Below the pieces are notes generated by a model, which saw only the letters and a list, made by a program, of their open reading frames with translations, did no database searches and was not told the DNA's origin. Made by a program: the position numbers and the translations under genes. Shown piece after piece: positions 54,445-61,870 of a stretch of 64,000 bases of DNA (position 1 is the stretch's first letter; each line of letters begins with the position of its first letter). The stretch is from Candidatus Rhabdochlamydia sp. (GTDB taxonomy: Bacteria; Chlamydiota; Chlamydiia; Chlamydiales; Rhabdochlamydiaceae): assembly GCA_051648645.1 (NCBI GenBank), contig JBOFFP010000001.1, forward strand, positions 320,001 to 384,000, written 5' to 3'.

Positions 54445-54539
54445 TTGCACCACATTGTTGAGCAGCCAGTAGTGCACTATTCAAGATCATATAGATCTTC
54501 TTTATAATGACTTGTTTGAGTATCATGAAAACTTTGCAT
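54445..54539 (-). pseudogene. Lanthipeptide precursor pseudogene (lanA7)
   Basis: MQSFHDTQTSHYKEDLYDLE*CTTGCSTMWCN: leader truncated by an internal deletion, in-frame TAG, core resembling lanA4. Confidence 0.75.
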
Positions 54540-54754
54540 AAAACCTCCGTTTAATTTCTTTTATGTTTTATAAAGAATAGAAGTAGTCTTATATTTTTTT
54601 TTATTTTAATCAATAAAAAATTAAATAGCGTGTGAATGTCAATAGAAGAATATTTTCATGCTATAAATTGCATAAAAAAACAGCCTTTTAGCAAATGCTG
54701 TTGTCTGTTCCTCAAAAAGATATTTTGCTGGGAGGAATTAAAGTCAAAGAGGTG

Positions 54755-57700
54755 TTATTTTGCATTAACGAGTTCTCCTTTATTCTGATTTTGTAATAAA
54801 AAAGTAGAAATCGCATGAGAAGCATAAACATAAGCTTTTTGTTCCAATAAAAAATCTATTCCAAGAATTCGGTTGCAGTTCATATGCATAAGGCTCATCA
54901 AAATATTTTCTAGATGGTTAGATTCTTGTAATGCAATAACATAAGAGCTTTGCTGTAGTTCTCTTTTTTGAAAGATCCCGGAAAAAAGATTTGATTCTTC
55001 GTTAAAAGCAGAAGAAGGCTTGTGATTTAGGATATTGATTACTGAAACCATTTTAGATTTCCATTCTCTAAAACCTTCTAAAAGTTCTTTTTTTAAATTC
55101 ATTTGATTAAATAAGGCCTTTTGTTGTTCTAAAGACAGACCAAAGCTTTTAAGGAGATGAATAAGGCTTAAAGAAGCTACGATATAATTGGGAAACTGTG
55201 TTTTTTTTGATAGGAGAAGATCTAAAAGAGAAAAGGTGCATTCTGAATCAGCTTGAAAAAAAGTTTCTGCTAAATCAATCAGAGATTCTCCTCCATATCG
55301 CTCTATTTCTCTATCGTAAGTGCCTATTTGAACTTCTCTAATCCAATTTTTTTGCACAAGATTTTCTGTCCAAAGATGGAATGTGCTCAATAGAGGGCTA
55401 AGATCTTTTAACTTCTTGAGTTTACATCTAAAGCGAACATGTGAGGCACCTGCTTCTTTGAATCGAATAAAAAACCATTTTTCTATTATATTTTTTATGT
55501 CTTGAGTAAAAAGACTTAAACAAGAGGTTAAAAATCTCTCTTCATTGTTATTAGGAAGATAGATTTTAGCATAAAACCATTCTCCCCCAGGAGGTTTTTT
55601 TCTGATGGCAGGATCTATCGAAGAAAGCACAGCAGGGATGTTTAAAGGAGTAAAGTGTTTTTTGTTTTTAAGGAAAGGAACTACAAATTCGCAACGATGC
55701 GTACCTAAGTTACTTTTAACTAACTCTTTTTCTCCCTTCTTTTCTATTAAATTAACAGGGGTTTTGGGATCTAGCTTTAGCCTGATGGCTATTTCTTTCA
55801 AGTGAAAATGCTTAGTTCGATCGAGAAGAATTTGATGATCCGCCCAAGCCATTAAAAGAAAGCGGGGAAGATTCCATGCATTAGCCCAAATTTCTATTTT
55901 TTGAATAAGGATCTCTAAGCTATCTTCTGCTTTTGCTTGAATAAGAGAGAGTGTTAATCGCCATTTAGCTGCAAAAAGAATCGTTTTTTTGTAGCGAATA
56001 GAAGGCAAAAAAGAAAAGCTTGCTGCTTTACCCCAAGAAAAAAAAGAAAAGGGCCGAAAACTATCTCTGGAAACATCTCGTAAAAATCGAACAAGGGTGG
56101 GGGCTATGGAAAGATTCAAGACATTGTTTGCAAAAACCATGAGTTTCTGTTTTTCTTTTTTTGTAGCCAAATAAAGATGATGGGGAGTGGCTCCCACAAC
56201 AATATCTTCAAGGTCAAGAGAATGCTCTTGAGATCTACTATAACCTAGATCAATGGCCAAAGGCCTCAAAAGAGAATGAGAAGCAACATTTGCATTTCGA
56301 GGAACGGAAGGGAAATAAGAAATTTCAGCATAGATAGCCATTGAATCTGCATTTTCTTCGTCTTGTAGAAAGGATCTTACTTTTTCTTTTTCTTGTTTTC
56401 CAAAGAAATCAATGAATCTACCCAAAGTAGCACAACCATTTGTGTTATCAGAACCTCCATGAAGAAGAAGCAGAAAATCTTCTTTATTTTCTATAGAAGG
56501 CTGAGGAATAACTCCAAAAAAGACATCAAAAGAAGAAGGGGCTTCTTTTGGATCTAAATTTAGATCAAATTTTTTGATCAAGTCTTCTGTAAGCACAATT
56601 TCTGTTCGGTGCTCTCGAATACACCGAGCCCACTCTTCCATTAACCAAGCTTCGTAGGAAAGTTCTTTTTGTTTTTCTTTTGACGTGATGAGATATTGCT
56701 CAGGGGTGCCTAATCCGATAGTTTCATCCAATAATTCCAGAACGGGAACAAGGCTAGATGTTCCATATTTATCTAAAAATTTTTCATGATAGGAGCGTAA
56801 AGCAGAGACTCCCTTATTCAGGGCAGATATTTTCCAAAGGGCTTCTATCCCTTCGCTAAGTGCATAACTGATATCTGAATGAAGGGAAATCTTTTCAGAA
56901 GAAACAGCATCTACTTGAAGCATCGAAGAAGAAGGATTAGTCATTGATTCTTGGAGAATTTTTAGAGAATTTTCTCCTTTTCCAACTGCAGTTGCTTGGT
57001 AATTTTGTAGAAGAGTAAGGATGGTTTGAAATTTTACTAGTAAAGCAGAAGAAGGAAGAATTGTTTTCAAGTAGTCAATAGAATCGATAAAAGAGGATTC
57101 TGTTAGAAGAGTAGGAAGCAGAGTCGGATAAAGAATTTCCTGTTGAATAAGGGAGTAAATGACCTGGGAGACTTTCTCAGGGTTTAAAGCAGGAAGATGG
57201 GATAAAACTTGTTTAAGTAGTTGCTCCTGAGTAATGACTTCTTTAGCTAGAAAAAGAATGAGACTTACTAAGGAATTTGCACGAATAGACACTTGTTTTT
57301 TTTCTGTTTTTCTTGAAAAAGGGAGAATGATTCTTCCCATGGATTCATAGAGAAAAGGATTTCTTTTTACAGGGAAAAAGGAAAGAACAGAAGGATCTAA
57401 GAGGATAGAATCAAGCTCATTTAGAAGCCATTGCATATCTGGTCGAGCTTGTTTTTTTATAAAAGTTAAATCAAATTGAGCTACAGGCGTTTGACTCCAT
57501 GCCCCCATTGAAACAAAAGAAAAAAGACCAAAAGGAGTAGCACGAGTAGTCATTCTTAAAACATATTTAAAAAGACTAGAAATAGCTTTTTCTTTTTTTT
57601 TGCATCTTTCTTCTTATTAGAAAGAAGTTGCAGGATCGTTTCATAAAGAGAAAAAGAAGCAATTGCAATAGCTTCTCGAAGCTCTGACCTTGTTTGAAAT

Positions 57701-57828
57701 AGGTGTAGAAGATAGCTCTCAACGTCAGGAGTTTTTAATAAATTAAAAAAGTCTTCCATGGGAAACATTGGAGTACGGACGAGAAAAAAAGAAGCAGGAG
57801 TAAAAATAAATTCACGAGGATGTAACAA
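54755..57828 (-). CDS. lanB: Class I lanthipeptide dehydratase LanB, split by a frameshift in an A9 tract (57593-57601); may be a pseudogene
   Basis: Upstream ORF has F..RTP and REAIAIAS.SL. One extra A restores SSLFKYVLRMTTRATPFGLF. C-terminal elimination domain W.YAKIY, WFFIRF, HVRFR, YDREIERYGG, FQADS, H..CNR..G. Confidence 0.88.
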
Positions 57829-58085
57829 TTTTTTCCTCCATTTCTAAATGAAGTTTAAGATGGAAATGATAGGTTTTGGCATAATTAGGATGCATTTTTA
57901 CTGAATTGGACGCAGATTCACAAAAGCCAGTTTTTTACATGGCCATTTTCCTGAATCAATCTTGTATTTCTTTGTTTAGATGGTCTAAAACCATATCTCC
58001 TTCTTTATGCAAGCTGAAAAGAAGAAGGGGTTGGTTTCAGGATTTTTTGTAGTCTATCCCATTAATTTATAGAAATACCAGCGTA

Positions 58086-58241
58086 CTAGTAACAGATGCA
58101 ATCTGATCTACCCGTACATAAAATACTGGGATTCATATTTTCGTGTGGGCTTATAGATAAGTCTGCAGCTTTGAGATCAATATCAAGATCATACGGATCC
58201 TCTTTATAATGACTTGTTTGAGTATCATGAGAAATTTTCAT
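58086..58241 (-). CDS. lanA: Lanthipeptide precursor lanA6 (51 aa); not in ORF track
   Basis: MKISHDTQTSHYKEDPYDLDIDLKAADLSISPHENMNPSILCTGRSDCICY; AGAGG RBS. Confidence 0.8.
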   Translation of the reverse strand: MKISHDTQTSHYKEDPYDLDIDLKAADLSISPHENMNPSILCTGRSDCICY

Positions 58242-58378
58242 AAAACCTCTGTTTAATTCTCTTATATTTATAAGGGATGGAAATTATATTAAAAATTTTC
58301 TTTGTTTTTAATCAATAAAAAAATTCAATAGTCATATCTACCCATGGGAATATTTTTAATTCACTCATGTCAGTTTAA

Positions 58379-61255: not shown

Positions 61256-61304
61256 ATAAAGCAAAACAAGGAAATATTGTCTCTTGGCAGCCTAAGAAAC
61301 AACC

Positions 61305-61463
61305 TTACTCAAAACAGCAATTTGTCAAATTTGTAGTAGTGGTTGGAGTTAAATTCACATTTTCGTGTAGGTTTATAGAAGAGTCTACAGTCTTGAGCTC
61401 AATATCAAGATTATATAAATCATCTTCATAATGAATGGATTGATTAATCTGAGAAATTTGCAT
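61305..61463 (-). CDS. lanA: Lanthipeptide precursor lanA2 (52 aa)
   Basis: MQISQINQSIHYEDDLYNLDIELKTVDSSINLHENVNL-TPTTTTNLTNCCFE; GGAGG RBS places the start at 61463. Confidence 0.85.
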   Translation of the reverse strand: MQISQINQSIHYEDDLYNLDIELKTVDSSINLHENVNLTPTTTTNLTNCCFE

Positions 61464-61573
61464 AGAACCTCCGTTTAATTCCTCACGTTTTATAAAGAAT
61501 AAAAGTGGTGTTAAATTTTTTTTATTTTCAATCAATAAAAAAACATAGCATTTTTTGGTTGTTTACTCATCAG

Positions 61574-61606
61574 GAAATGAGGATTTCTCTAGATAAATCC
61601 TCATTT
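61574..61606 (-). terminator. Hairpin downstream of lanA1
   Basis: AAATGAGGATTT-loop-AAATCCTCATTT. Confidence 0.55.
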
Positions 61607-61625
61607 TTTTTGTAAGAGTACTGGT

Positions 61626-61784
61626 TTAACAACCAGTTGTGACGCAAGCCGGAGTGCATACCGCCCCGCTTAAATGCACATTTTCGTGTATATTCATAGA
61701 TAAGTCTATGTCTTTGAACTCAATATCAAGATCATATAGATCTTCTTTGTAGTGATTTATTTGAATACCATGAAAACTTTGCAT
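61626..61784 (-). CDS. lanA: Lanthipeptide precursor lanA1 (52 aa)
   Basis: MQSFHGIQINHYKEDLYDLDIEFKDIDLSMNIHENVHL-SGAVCTPACVTTGC; GGAGG RBS places the start at 61784. Confidence 0.87.
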   Translation of the reverse strand: MQSFHGIQINHYKEDLYDLDIEFKDIDLSMNIHENVHLSGAVCTPACVTTGC

Positions 61785-61870
61785 AAAACCTCCGTTTAAT
61801 TCCTTTATGTTGTAAAGGATGAGATTAGTCATAAAATTTTTTTTTGTTTTAATCAATAAAAAATTAAATC
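61785..61870 (-). promoter_or_regulatory. Conserved ~85-bp upstream module of lanA genes (also at about 61464-61545, 61082-61170, 60563-60650, 60159-60245, 58242-58328, 54540-54627)
   Basis: TTGAT(T/A)-A-rich spacer-TA(A/T)GA(C/T)-like box, TCCTTTA...TAAAGGA hairpin, then TTAAA(C/T)GGAGGTTTTATG. Confidence 0.7.

Follow-up and report, generated by a model that had tools for sequence, protein, structure and literature searches.

The window analysed here, a 64,000-nucleotide stretch from Candidatus Rhabdochlamydia sp., contains a class I lanthipeptide gene cluster at 54.4-61.9 kb on the minus strand, comprising lanC, lanB, six intact precursor genes (lanA1 to lanA6, encoding A1 to A6) and one truncated copy. 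The original prediction had named lanC, lanB and seven homologous small genes, six intact and one a pseudogene. All of them were found in place on the minus strand, and the six core sequences it listed matched the open reading frames (ORFs) exactly. The features are listed below.

52660-53754, plus strand: DeoC/LacD-family aldolase gene, island flank (neighbour gene)
53755..61986, no strand: accessory island of ~8.2 kb, with the entire cluster inside (flank comparison with genus genomes)
53917..54219, plus strand: 100-aa ORF with a hydrophobic middle and a Cys-rich end (ORF list)
about 54480..54539, minus strand: truncated lanA remnant (pseudogene), leader MQSFHDTQTSHYKEDLYDLE, then TAG, then A4-like core tail CTTGCSTMWCN (repeats; profile)
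54755..57553, minus strand: main reading frame of lanB, giving 932 aa when counted from its first ATG and open upstream as far as the A tract (PF04738, PF14028)
57556..57828, minus strand: lanB N-terminal piece, 90 aa, TTG start, stop after the frameshift (ORF; matches P0013 residues 1-77)
57593..57601, minus strand: A9 homopolymer, the -1 frameshift site splitting lanB (sequence; comparison with P0013)
58086..58241, minus strand: lanA6, 51 aa, core (P)SILCTGRSDCICY, between lanC and lanB (ORF; alignment; orthologue P0007)
58379..59689, minus strand: lanC, lanthionine cyclase, 436 aa, intact (PF05147, E 9.7e-61)
59976..60158, minus strand: lanA5, 60 aa, core GSHGGHCTMPSNCYGCSEYC (ORF; alignment; orthologue P0009)
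60395..60562, minus strand: lanA4, 55 aa, core YPSEWTCSTGCPTMGCN (ORF; alignment)
60914..61081, minus strand: lanA3, 55 aa, core ESTRWQCSPTCGTMYCG (ORF; alignment; orthologue P0003)
61305..61463, minus strand: lanA2, 52 aa, core TPTTTTNLTNCCFE (ORF; alignment; orthologue P0006)
61626..61784, minus strand: lanA1, 52 aa, core SGAVCTPACVTTGC, or HLSGAVC... if cleavage is 2 residues earlier (ORF; Pfam Gallidermin)
61834..61860, 61513-61539, 61132-61158, 60615-60641, 60208-60234, 58293-58319 and 54591-54617, minus strand: conserved upstream element, one per unit (alignment; repeat family D5)
61987-63996, minus strand: conserved 669-aa gene, function not assigned, other island flank (neighbour gene)

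The genome is 1.67 Mb in size (93%-complete) and encodes a TLC ATP/ADP translocase on contig 8, and the named close homologues of the cluster proteins, at 88-99% identity, belong to Candidatus Rhabdochlamydia. The host is a chlamydia-like, insect-type intracellular symbiont, in agreement with the chlamydia-like intracellular bacterium originally proposed. The two genes flanking the island are spaced 0.4-1.2 kb apart in four of the eight other genus genomes and 3.1-4.0 kb apart in two; they are widely separated in one, and no match to the second gene was found in the remaining one. Searches with the island DNA and proteins (blastn, tblastn) gave zero matches at the loci of six genus relatives, where the flanks alone were matched. 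In these six relatives the flanking genes are close neighbours, and the cluster is inserted between them here as an 8.2-kb segment. The 100-aa ORF matches no Pfam or NCBIfam family and is absent between the equivalent flanks of the six relatives; it may be a member of the system.

Precursor family and predicted rings

Each precursor unit matches all the others with 73-85% DNA identity over 136-209 nt, a repeat search recovered the units as a 7-copy family, and a profile of the six intact precursors searched against the genome scored these six at E 1e-26 to 1e-33. The family is therefore not a product of chance. A further intact copy, the eighth, is located on contig 8, so that the genome has seven intact lanA genes, six of them in the window, and one remnant. 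The homologous unit of the remnant spans 54435-54628, with matches to the other units across 54471-54620, and its leader ends in ...LYDLE before the TAG. It matches the six-precursor profile at positions 1-20 only (E 1.6e-7), and its first 19 residues are those of the intact P0008 from a relative.

Alignment bore out the proposal of numerous precursors with a common YDLD-box leader and divergent Ser/Thr/Cys cores. The leaders are conserved, with an LYDLDIELK box (mean identity of 61% among the six), whereas the cores, of 13-20 aa, are strongly divergent (27%). The dN/dS of the leaders (~0.47 for the six precursors) shows purifying selection. Between strains, cores are conserved as well as or better than leaders in A2 (near-identical to P0006 from another Rhabdochlamydia assembly; differences of 1/38 in the leader and 0/14 in the core), A3 (8/38 and 1/17 versus P0003) and A6 (0/38 and 1/13 versus P0007); the corresponding values for A5 versus P0009 are 7/39 and 5/19.

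After the conserved element upstream of each unit come a TTAAGA..TAAAAT-like stretch and then GGAGG 5 nt before the ATG; both the element and the GGAGG are kept in 8/8 units in an alignment including the contig-8 copy. Promoter-like matches lie ahead of A3, A4, A5 and A6, with a region total (18 found versus 27.6 expected) not above chance. Contigs from an RNA library on lanB, A6 (58110-58298), lanC and A1 (61644-61834) give a weak hint that the cluster is transcribed; they do not span the lanB A tract, and DNA carry-over is possible.

A1 narrowly passed the Pfam Gallidermin threshold (PF02052; 21.8 bits, cut-off 21) and scored below that of NCBIfam lantibio_gallid (TIGR03731; 17.4 bits, cut-off 29.3), and no other precursor in the window reached any lantibiotic family threshold. 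A1, A3 and A4 retain the nisin/cesin ring register, Ser/Thr3-Cys7 and Ser/Thr8-Cys11, and in A4 the predicted pairs Ser3-Cys7, Ser8-Cys11 and Thr13-Cys16 have a register equal to that of nisin and cesin A. None of the window precursors has the exact SxxxCTP(G/S)C motif; the A1 core reads CTPAC, unlike the published CTP(G/S)C. The relative P0012 joins the same leader to a core with the exact SxxxCTPGC, the lipid II motif (Walker 2020, as quoted), and a gallidermin-like end. The nisin/gallidermin ring A/B scaffold of A1, A3, A4 and the relatives indicates lipid II as a candidate target. With seven cores, three of them on one nisin-like ring scaffold, the originally proposed combinatorial library in the sense of prochlorosins is too strong a term.

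Modification enzymes and the interrupted lanB

The top PDB matches of LanC were 8byk_A (E 2.4e-57) and NisC (2g02, E 1.2e-25), and its motifs WCYG, FCHG, AHGVSG and YDPISG align with the zinc-ligand and acid/base positions of NisC. Against LanM it scored 57.9 bits, compared to a cut-off of 304. The 932-aa piece of LanB matched PF04738 from profile position 48 (E 3.7e-124) and PF14028 (E 4.1e-48), with PDB matches to 9g04, MibB (5ehk) and NisB (4wd9). LanB motifs align to the catalytic residues R83, R87, T89, D121, D299, R464, R786, R826 and H961 of NisB. These strong HMM matches (PF05147, PF04738, PF14028) uphold the assignment to class I.

In P0013, which is 99% identical, the sequence is ...DAKKKEKAISSLFKYVLRMTTR, just as the window lanB would read with one extra A. 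LanB is intact in the relatives P0013 (1024 aa), P0014 (90% identity, 1025 aa) and P0015 (88%, 1012 aa). The break is thus confined to the present assembly and may reflect a recent mutation, an on/off site prone to slippage or an error of assembly. Homopolymer-linked frame breaks are not in excess genome-wide (17 observed versus 12.4 expected; 12 versus 10.6 in a second count), so that no systematic error favours an assembly artefact. This would suit a decaying relic, in which the island worked until recently but the -1 slip has genuinely knocked out lanB in this strain, leaving the precursors unmodified and the array bound to disappear, as a reduced intracellular genome would lead one to expect. 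The truncated lanA copy adjoining lanB, an array order that differs between strains (joints in RNA-library contigs), and the detection of the precursor family by profile search in this genome (G000) and in 0/8 other species of the genus are also consistent with decay. However, the lesion is single and sits at the type of site most prone to errors and slippage. Furthermore, lanC is intact, as are six lanA genes, each with its start codon, Shine-Dalgarno sequence and upstream element, and the retained LanB catalytic motifs, the selection on the leaders and the intact LanB of the three relatives likewise argue against decay, which we regard as possible but rather doubtful.

A second, intact LanBC locus lies on contig 12 (LanB of 1026 aa, LanC of 434 aa) with its own FDLD-box precursor; the "single LanBC pair" of the original prediction thus did not hold, the window LanB itself being out of frame in the assembly. 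That prediction had included neither this locus, nor the intact contig-8 copy, nor the single-base homopolymer nature of the lanB break. If the contig-12 enzymes modified the seven precursors in trans, the broken window lanB would be immaterial. The two enzyme sets are distant, however (39% identity for LanC and 31% for LanB), the leaders differ except in the xDLD box, and the contig-12-type clusters of the genus relatives G086 and G242 carry one precursor each, of their own type. We consider processing in trans very improbable.

Taken as a whole, the account we find probable is that of a strain-specific 8.2-kb island encoding a nisin/gallidermin-lineage system for class I lanthipeptides, in which tandem duplication of a precursor gene was followed by diversification of the cores. 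Several observations count against it: lanB is out of frame here, one precursor copy is already a remnant, genes for protease, nearby exporter and immunity were not recognised, the promoter matches do not exceed chance, A1 alone reaches a lantibiotic family threshold (and narrowly) while reading CTPAC, the RNA-library contigs may stem from DNA, and the literature searched reports no product of a chlamydial cluster. From the genes we infer how the system would work if active in the present strain. Every lanA would be driven by its own upstream element and ribosome-binding site, and LanB would recognise the shared leader via the LYDLDIELK box, the presumed counterpart of FNLD/FDLD. LanB would glutamylate Ser/Thr residues of the core with Glu-tRNA(Glu) and eliminate the glutamate to give dehydro-residues, to which the zinc enzyme LanC would add Cys thiols, forming thioether rings. 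A1, A3 and A4 would each yield a short peptide of three rings, with rings A and B of nisin type and the third from Thr13 to Cys16, a cesin-like candidate for lipid II binding. A2, A5, A6 and the contig-8 peptide would adopt other ring topologies, and proteins encoded outside the island would remove the leader and export the products.

Comparison with known systems

The original prediction had placed the system in a lineage not known to make lanthipeptides, which earlier records contradict. Marsh et al. (2010, PMC3091789) describe a LanABC cluster of type 1 from Parachlamydia acanthamoebae, and Data S10 of Dharamshi et al. (2022, PMC9666466) assigns lanthipeptide-class-i clusters, by antiSMASH, to species including Ca. 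Rhabdochlamydia helveticae and Ca. R. porcellionis; the word stem "lanthi" is absent from the main text of the latter. These records share the phylum (in the 2022 table, the genus) and the enzyme class with the window, but in their accessible parts they give clusters only, without described precursor arrays. No product of any chlamydial lanthipeptide cluster is reported in the literature searched. LanB was found in 41 of the 401 genomes sampled from the phylum, with (L/P/A)YDLD-type leaders in many, and 20 other chlamydial loci inspected had 0-3 candidate precursors each. Class I clusters in Chlamydiae being already published, the novelty is the expanded, diversified precursor array.

According to the available portion of a preprint (bioRxiv 10.1101/2024.06.26.600839), lanthiphages are anti-phage lanthipeptide clusters of class I, most of them without ABC transporters; they act intracellularly, and 67 cases have several precursors with distinct cores. 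The island resembles them in these features of gene content, and the peptides might likewise act inside the bacterium or its developmental cycle, in an anti-phage or regulatory role, rather than as exported lipid II-binding antibiotics. No exporter, protease or immunity gene was recognised in or around the island, and the same holds for the two gallidermin-type chlamydial clusters inspected. Across the 93%-complete genome, ABC_membrane has just two matches, both at least 87 kb from the cluster, and Peptidase_S8 and Flavoprotein (LanP-type protease, LanD) have no match. However, the cores lack the lanthiphage motif TXDXCXXXCXXXC, the island has no LphD/E/F-like genes, and the lanthiphage family is, in that portion of the preprint, restricted to Actinobacteria, which are another phylum. 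Together with the nisin/gallidermin scaffold of A1, A3, A4 and the relatives, which points to lipid II, this makes an internal role unlikely. The window cluster also shows no defence-island context.

With nisin, gallidermin and epidermin (NisABC, EpiABCD; PF02052, TIGR03731), the system shares separate LanB and LanC enzymes and an aromatic-D-L-D leader box. The likeness extends to the Gallidermin match of A1, the ring A and B spacing of A1, A3 and A4, and the gallidermin-like core of P0012. In contrast to the single precursor of nisin or gallidermin, there are seven divergent ones here; LanP, LanT, LanFEG/LanI and LanD were not found, the host is an intracellular Gram-negative-type bacterium, and lanB is frameshifted in the assembly.

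Cesin A of Clostridium estertheticum is described, in the accessible text of its report (PMC8792950), as a natural nisin variant of 21 aa with three macrocycles determined by MS. A1, A3 and A4 have the same short three-ring nisin register in prediction (residue 3-Cys7, 8-Cys11 and a third ring from Thr13). With 16-17 aa, the chlamydial cores are even shorter than cesin A; their third ring, Thr13-Cys16 in place of Thr13-Cys19, is predicted to be smaller, and they share little sequence identity with it. The cesin A rings were shown by MS; those of the chlamydial peptides are predicted from the genes.

Prochlorosins are class II peptides, made by one ProcM-type LanM with many substrates. Like prochlorosins and SyncA peptides, the window system pairs one set of enzymes with many precursors whose leader is conserved and whose cores diverge, and has a precursor gene located apart (here on contig 8), but it employs LanB and LanC instead of a bifunctional LanM. 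SyncM is quoted with up to 79 substrates, compared to seven here; for class I enzymes, seven different precursor genes are an unusually large set.

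Precursor genes and modification enzymes

The window carries a genuine class I lanthipeptide island, probably of nisin/gallidermin lineage, in a Rhabdochlamydia-like genome, and its precursor array is unusually expanded and diversified. The genome (1.67 Mb in 12 contigs, 35.5% GC, 93% completeness) has genes for ankyrin proteins and for a TLC ATP/ADP translocase (E = 4.6e-223), and its nearest named protein relatives belong to Candidatus Rhabdochlamydia. The original prediction of a class I system with multiple precursors in a chlamydia-like genome was right in its observation, and the leaders and cores of the six intact peptides that it listed were reproduced exactly in the ORF list and the alignment. 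On the minus strand at 54.4 to 61.9 kb, the genes follow the order A1-A2-A3-A4-A5-lanC-A6-lanB, with a seventh unit downstream.

Features of the island and of related loci (window coordinates unless a contig is named)
61987-63996, minus strand: gene for a 669-aa protein flanking the island, no Pfam or NCBIfam family
61626-61784, minus strand: lanA1 (A1), from the ORF list
61305-61463, minus strand: lanA2 (A2), from the ORF list
60914-61081, minus strand: lanA3 (A3), from the ORF list
60395-60562, minus strand: lanA4 (A4), from the ORF list
59976-60158, minus strand: lanA5 (A5), from the ORF list
58379-59689, minus strand: lanC, 436 aa, stand-alone, PF05147 with E = 9.7e-61
58086-58241, minus strand: lanA6 (A6), between lanC and lanB, from the ORF list
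57556-57828, minus strand: N-terminal piece of lanB, 90 aa
57593-57601, minus strand: A9 run joining the lanB pieces; a -1 shift splits the frame into 90 and 932 aa
54755-57553, minus strand: main piece of lanB, 932 aa, PF04738 with E = 3.7e-124 from profile position 48 and PF14028 with E = 4.1e-48
within 54471-54620, minus strand: frame of the seventh unit, reading MQSFHDTQTSHYKEDLYDLE, then TAG, then directly an A4-like core tail, CTTGCSTMWCN
53917-54219, plus strand: 100-aa ORF within the island, its product hydrophobic in the middle and rich in Cys at the C-terminus
contig 8, about 18821-18976 (locus L043, about 9821-9976), minus strand: eighth precursor copy with the conserved upstream element, far from any LanB or LanC
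contig 12, 162084-166734 (locus L042, 4084-8734): second class I cluster of the same genome, with intact lanC (434 aa) and lanB (1026 aa)

The precursors A1 to A6 adjoin the enzymes and share an L(Y)D/NLD/NI leader box, and their cores contain 2 to 4 Cys and 2 to 7 Ser/Thr residues. The precursor repeat is far above chance: each unit shared 73 to 85% DNA identity over 136 to 209 nt with all others, and a repeat search of the window reported a 7-copy family. The homology of the seventh unit, downstream of lanB, spans 54471-54620; since its leader ends in TAG and the A4-like tail lies directly behind, it is an internally deleted remnant. A profile built from the six peptides found eight places in the genome (E = 2.7e-33 to 1.6e-7). 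The eighth copy, on contig 8, is intact and solitary, with the core NYNQTVTCATCPGQCL, and is neighboured by an MFS transporter gene and lepA. A leader-box motif scan of the genome, which missed this copy (recovered by blastn), gave 11 matches, namely the six precursors and five ORFs that were dropped as unrelated.

The alignment also showed that about 85 nt before each ATG are kept in all eight units. Within this stretch lie a T-rich/TTGAT element, a segment resembling TTAAGA...TAAAAT and, 5 nt ahead of the start codon, GGAGG. A generic promoter consensus scan marked it at A3, A4, A5 and A6, with a total over the region that was not above shuffles (18 vs 27.6). No convincing terminator was found behind the lanA genes by a consensus scan, and the window had no match in Rfam or tRNA scans.

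The Pfam search for LanC and LanB domains that had been proposed together with the prediction matched PF05147, PF04738 and PF14028. LanC could be aligned with the solved structures of a LanC-like protein (8byk, E = 2.4e-57) and NisC (2g02, E = 1.2e-25). Its WCYG, FCHG, AHGVSG and YDPISG stretches lay opposite the corresponding NisC motifs, which carry the zinc ligands (Cys, Cys-His), the catalytic His and Asp. In LanB, both the glutamylation domain (PF04738) and the elimination domain (PF14028) were matched, and the protein was aligned to the structures 9g04, MibB (5ehk) and NisB (4wd9). The stretches opposite the NisB catalytic residues R83/R87/T89, D121, D299, R464, R786, R826 and H961 were conserved.

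The LanB frame is not intact in the present assembly. One more A in the tract would give ...DAKKKEKAISSLFKYVLRMTTR..., identical to the reading of P0013, an intact LanB relative of 1024 aa with 99% identity. Two further relatives are also intact: P0014, named Candidatus Rhabdochlamydia sp., has 1025 aa at 90% identity, and P0015 has 1012 aa at 88%. The tract is interrupted (KKREK) in both of them, which excludes a conserved programmed shift. Without read-through, LanB starting from the first ATG would be short by about 92 residues at its N-terminus and would lose the YxxR motif with them. We counted long frames abutting at homopolymers in a crude genome-wide test, and 17 were observed vs 12.4 expected (12 vs 10.6 at a stricter length); the near-expected number of such breaks indicates that the assembly is not full of homopolymer errors. 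For contigs of other samples crossing the A tract, none of the indels listed lay at the tract; these contigs had one (X2, X3) or two (X1) unexplained gaps, which may lie anywhere along them. The runs bear labels such as air, freshwater and bat, which were given no weight as to habitat. The break is thus private to the present assembly and reflects one isolated error, a recent slippage event or a site that switches on and off, and with this one-base break the system may or may not be active in the present strain.

Two pairs of long same-strand ORFs elsewhere in the window overlap. The pair 18005-19423 and 19350-20744 overlaps by 74 nt and meets at an A8 run (contig-1 position 339397), and the pair 6206-7303 and 7182-11243 overlaps by 122 nt. 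These may be more frameshifted genes or ordinary overlaps.

The original prediction had assigned all precursors to a single LanBC pair. A pair indeed lies beside the precursors, but the genome holds a second intact lanC-lanB pair on contig 12, with 39% (LanC) and 31% (LanB) identity to the enzymes of the window. The second pair is accompanied by a single precursor whose type differs (...EVFDLDCK...) and whose core contains CAHTCATC, and G086 and G242, two relatives in the genus, have orthologues of this precursor. Upstream of this cluster lies a gene for an 862-aa protein that matched no Pfam family. We considered it together with the 669-aa protein flanking the island as a shared new cluster component; BLASTP showed no homology between the two (best E = 0.006), and the idea was dropped.

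Distribution of the island and divergence of the peptide cores

An aldolase gene and the conserved 669-aa gene flank the 8.2 kb occupied by the cluster. The same flanks in eight other genomes of the genus are 0.4 to 1.2 kb apart in four and 3.1 to 4.0 kb apart in two; they are far apart in one, and the second flank gene was not found in the remaining one. The 669-aa protein itself is genus-wide, being kept in seven of the eight relatives at 60 to 68% identity. Neither DNA nor proteins of the island matched any of the six fetched genus loci, and the precursor family was absent from all eight other genus genomes in a profile search. The island is therefore strain- or species-specific. Weak matches to the precursor profile occurred in two other members of the family, G425 (E = 9.5e-7) and G401 (E = 0.005, with an internal stop). 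Contigs from three DNA runs spanned lanB-A6-lanC at 95 to 99% likeness with the array joined differently, and the array content therefore varies among strains. The strain-specific island and the between-strain differences of the array suggest a rapid turnover that is typical of conflict systems.

The only genes of the island are the lanA genes, lanC, lanB and the 100-aa ORF. The product of this ORF matched no Pfam or NCBIfam family, and the ORF was absent between the same flanks in six relatives; it could encode an immunity protein, an accessory protein or nothing. No LanT, LanP (S8) or LanI/LanFEG was found inside the island. Peptidase_S8 (PF00082) had no match genome-wide, and the two genome matches of ABC_membrane (PF00664) lay at about 105 kb and 232 kb on contig 1, at least 87 kb from the cluster; these two ABC exporters are among the candidates for exporting the peptides.

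Among the seven intact paralogues, the mean identity was 61% for the leaders and 27% for the cores, with the contig-8 core entered two residues short, which puts its pairwise values slightly off. The dN/dS ratio of the leaders was about 0.47 (0.243/0.523, 21 pairs). This pattern was reversed between strains in four pairs of orthologues from other assemblies, compared as protein sequences. A3 and P0003 differed at 8 of 38 leader positions and 1 of 17 core positions, and A5 and P0009 at 7 of 39 and 5 of 19, respectively. A2 and P0006 showed 1 difference in 38 leader residues and 0 in 14 core residues; for A6 and P0007, the counts were 0 of 38 and 1 of 13. The four pairs indicate that each core, once formed, was conserved, which argues for functional products over drift.

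Class I lanthipeptide loci in Chlamydiota

PF04738 (LanB) was detected in 41 of 401 sampled genomes of the phylum, the present one included, and 40 were above the cut-off. All of them belong to one order, and the match occurred in 11 of 89 genomes of the family and in 3 of 8 of the genus. We surveyed precursors by regular expression in the 10 to 19 kb around LanB in 20 genomes, a range from which more distant precursors would escape. Three candidates (the second of L044, that of L045 and the first of L056) were judged spurious by eye and removed. The 20 loci then had no candidate precursor in 4 cases, one in 13, two in 2 and three in 1, so the six to seven intact precursors found here are exceptional in the sample. 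Leaders with (L/P/A)YDLD were present at many of these loci. The sole other locus with three candidates, L053 (G313, contig 34), has two tandem precursors with similar leaders (..LYDLDVSF and ..PYDLDVSF) and related cores, showing the same pattern of duplication on a smaller scale.

Gallidermin-like cores (...ITSKSLCTPGCGNTG..NSFCC) were found at L049 (G175), L059 (G085), L060 (G156) and L062 (G200), in four different families. In G175 and G200, lanC, lanD (flavoprotein) and lanB stand beside an AAA/STAND-type ATPase, and neither annotated locus contained an ABC exporter or an S8 protease. Four tandem LuxR-type (GerE) genes adjoin the cluster in G200.

The suggestion that the lineage was new to lanthipeptides proved wrong, in view of LanB in 41 of the 401 genomes and of earlier records. 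Marsh et al. (2010; PMC3091789) reported a LanA/LanB/LanC cluster from Parachlamydia acanthamoebae and counted Chlamydiae as a fourth phylum in which type 1 clusters occur. In a phylum-wide antiSMASH analysis, Dharamshi et al. (2022; PMC9666466) list in Data S10 one lanthipeptide-class-i cluster each for Ca. R. helveticae and Ca. R. porcellionis, with further ones in Parachlamydiaceae. The word stem 'lanthi' does not occur in their main text, lanthipeptides appearing only in the supplementary table, and the secondary metabolism of environmental chlamydiae is described in this survey as not previously noted. An Algichlamydia paper of 2024 mentions lanthionine synthetase in passing, and the main text of Walker et al. 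(2020) does not contain 'Chlamyd'. No paper describing such a precursor array was found in literature searches on Rhabdochlamydia or Chlamydiae with lanthipeptides or lantibiotics. The secondary metabolism of environmental chlamydiae has been catalogued only and never characterised.

Predicted ring patterns and comparison with known systems

A1 was the sole precursor of the six to reach the cut-off of the Pfam Gallidermin family (PF02052; 21.8 bits, cut-off 21). With NCBIfam lantibio_gallid (TIGR03731), A1 scored 17.4 bits against a cut-off of 29.3, and none of the six reached it; A2 to A6 matched no family in the Pfam and NCBIfam searches. The six-peptide profile found only 12 proteins at E ≤ 0.01 in a collection of 5.8 billion and 9 at E ≤ 0.001 among 1.84 billion representatives, and all source-named matches were from Candidatus Rhabdochlamydia sp. 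One family member in a relative, P0008, bears the NCBI name 'gallidermin family lantibiotic'. Another, P0012, has the same leader and a core with the exact lipid II motif SxxxCTPGC (SKFLCTPGC) and a gallidermin-like ...SFCC end. The exact motif, SxxxCTP(G/S)C as quoted from Walker et al. (2020), was absent from the window cores, the related stretches being SGAVCTPAC in A1, TRWQCSPTC in A3 and SEWTCSTGC in A4.

The predicted rings of A3 and A4, Thr/Ser3-Cys7, Ser8-Cys11 and Thr13-Cys16, are in the register of nisin and cesin A. Cesin A is described as a natural nisin variant of 21 aa with three macrocycles by MS (PMC8792950). The fit of A3 and A4 to this register supports leader cleavage after ...HENxxL. 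A1 adopts the same register if its core begins two residues earlier (HLSGAVC...), and A2, A5, A6 and the contig-8 peptide did not fit the scaffold.

The locus is a concrete and testable case, with seven short predicted substrates and one class I enzyme pair. Three of the seven substrates are predicted minimal three-ring forms of the lipid II-binding scaffold of nisin. If active, the system would bear on how symbionts living inside cells compete with bacteria in the same host cell or protect against them, on the substrate tolerance of LanB and LanC, and on the minimum size of a lipid II-binding lantibiotic. A bolder reading, which we consider rather unlikely, is that the very short ring peptides, some nisin-like and others unrelated to nisin, form a fast-evolving arsenal maintained by an obligate intracellular chlamydia. 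They would be made by one LanBC pair, possibly switched on and off at the lanB poly-A tract, released without a classical LanT or LanP, and directed against bacteria that co-infect the host cell of an arthropod or protist, in a defensive or competitive symbiosis, with the array content turning over between strains under diversifying selection. If true, an intracellular symbiont would for the first time be described as having a functional system of lantibiotic warfare, one that is also a natural source of minimal lipid II binders.

LanD, the flavoprotein decarboxylase that forms the C-terminal AviCys in the epidermin and gallidermin systems, was not found for the present one, PF02441 having no match in the 93%-complete genome. 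The present system differs from the prochlorosin system in having LanB and LanC as two separate enzymes in place of a bifunctional ProcM-type LanM; the LanM model scored 57.9 bits on LanC, against a cut-off of 304 and over the cyclase part only. The island also differs from lanthiphages, anti-phage class I lanthipeptide systems whose features in the preprint (bioRxiv 10.1101/2024.06.26.600839) are LphD/E/F and the core motif TXDXCXXXCXXXC: no LphD/E/F genes were found in the island, and the motif was absent from the seven cores. The same preprint describes class I clusters of Actinobacteria that have several distinct precursors and are without exporters.
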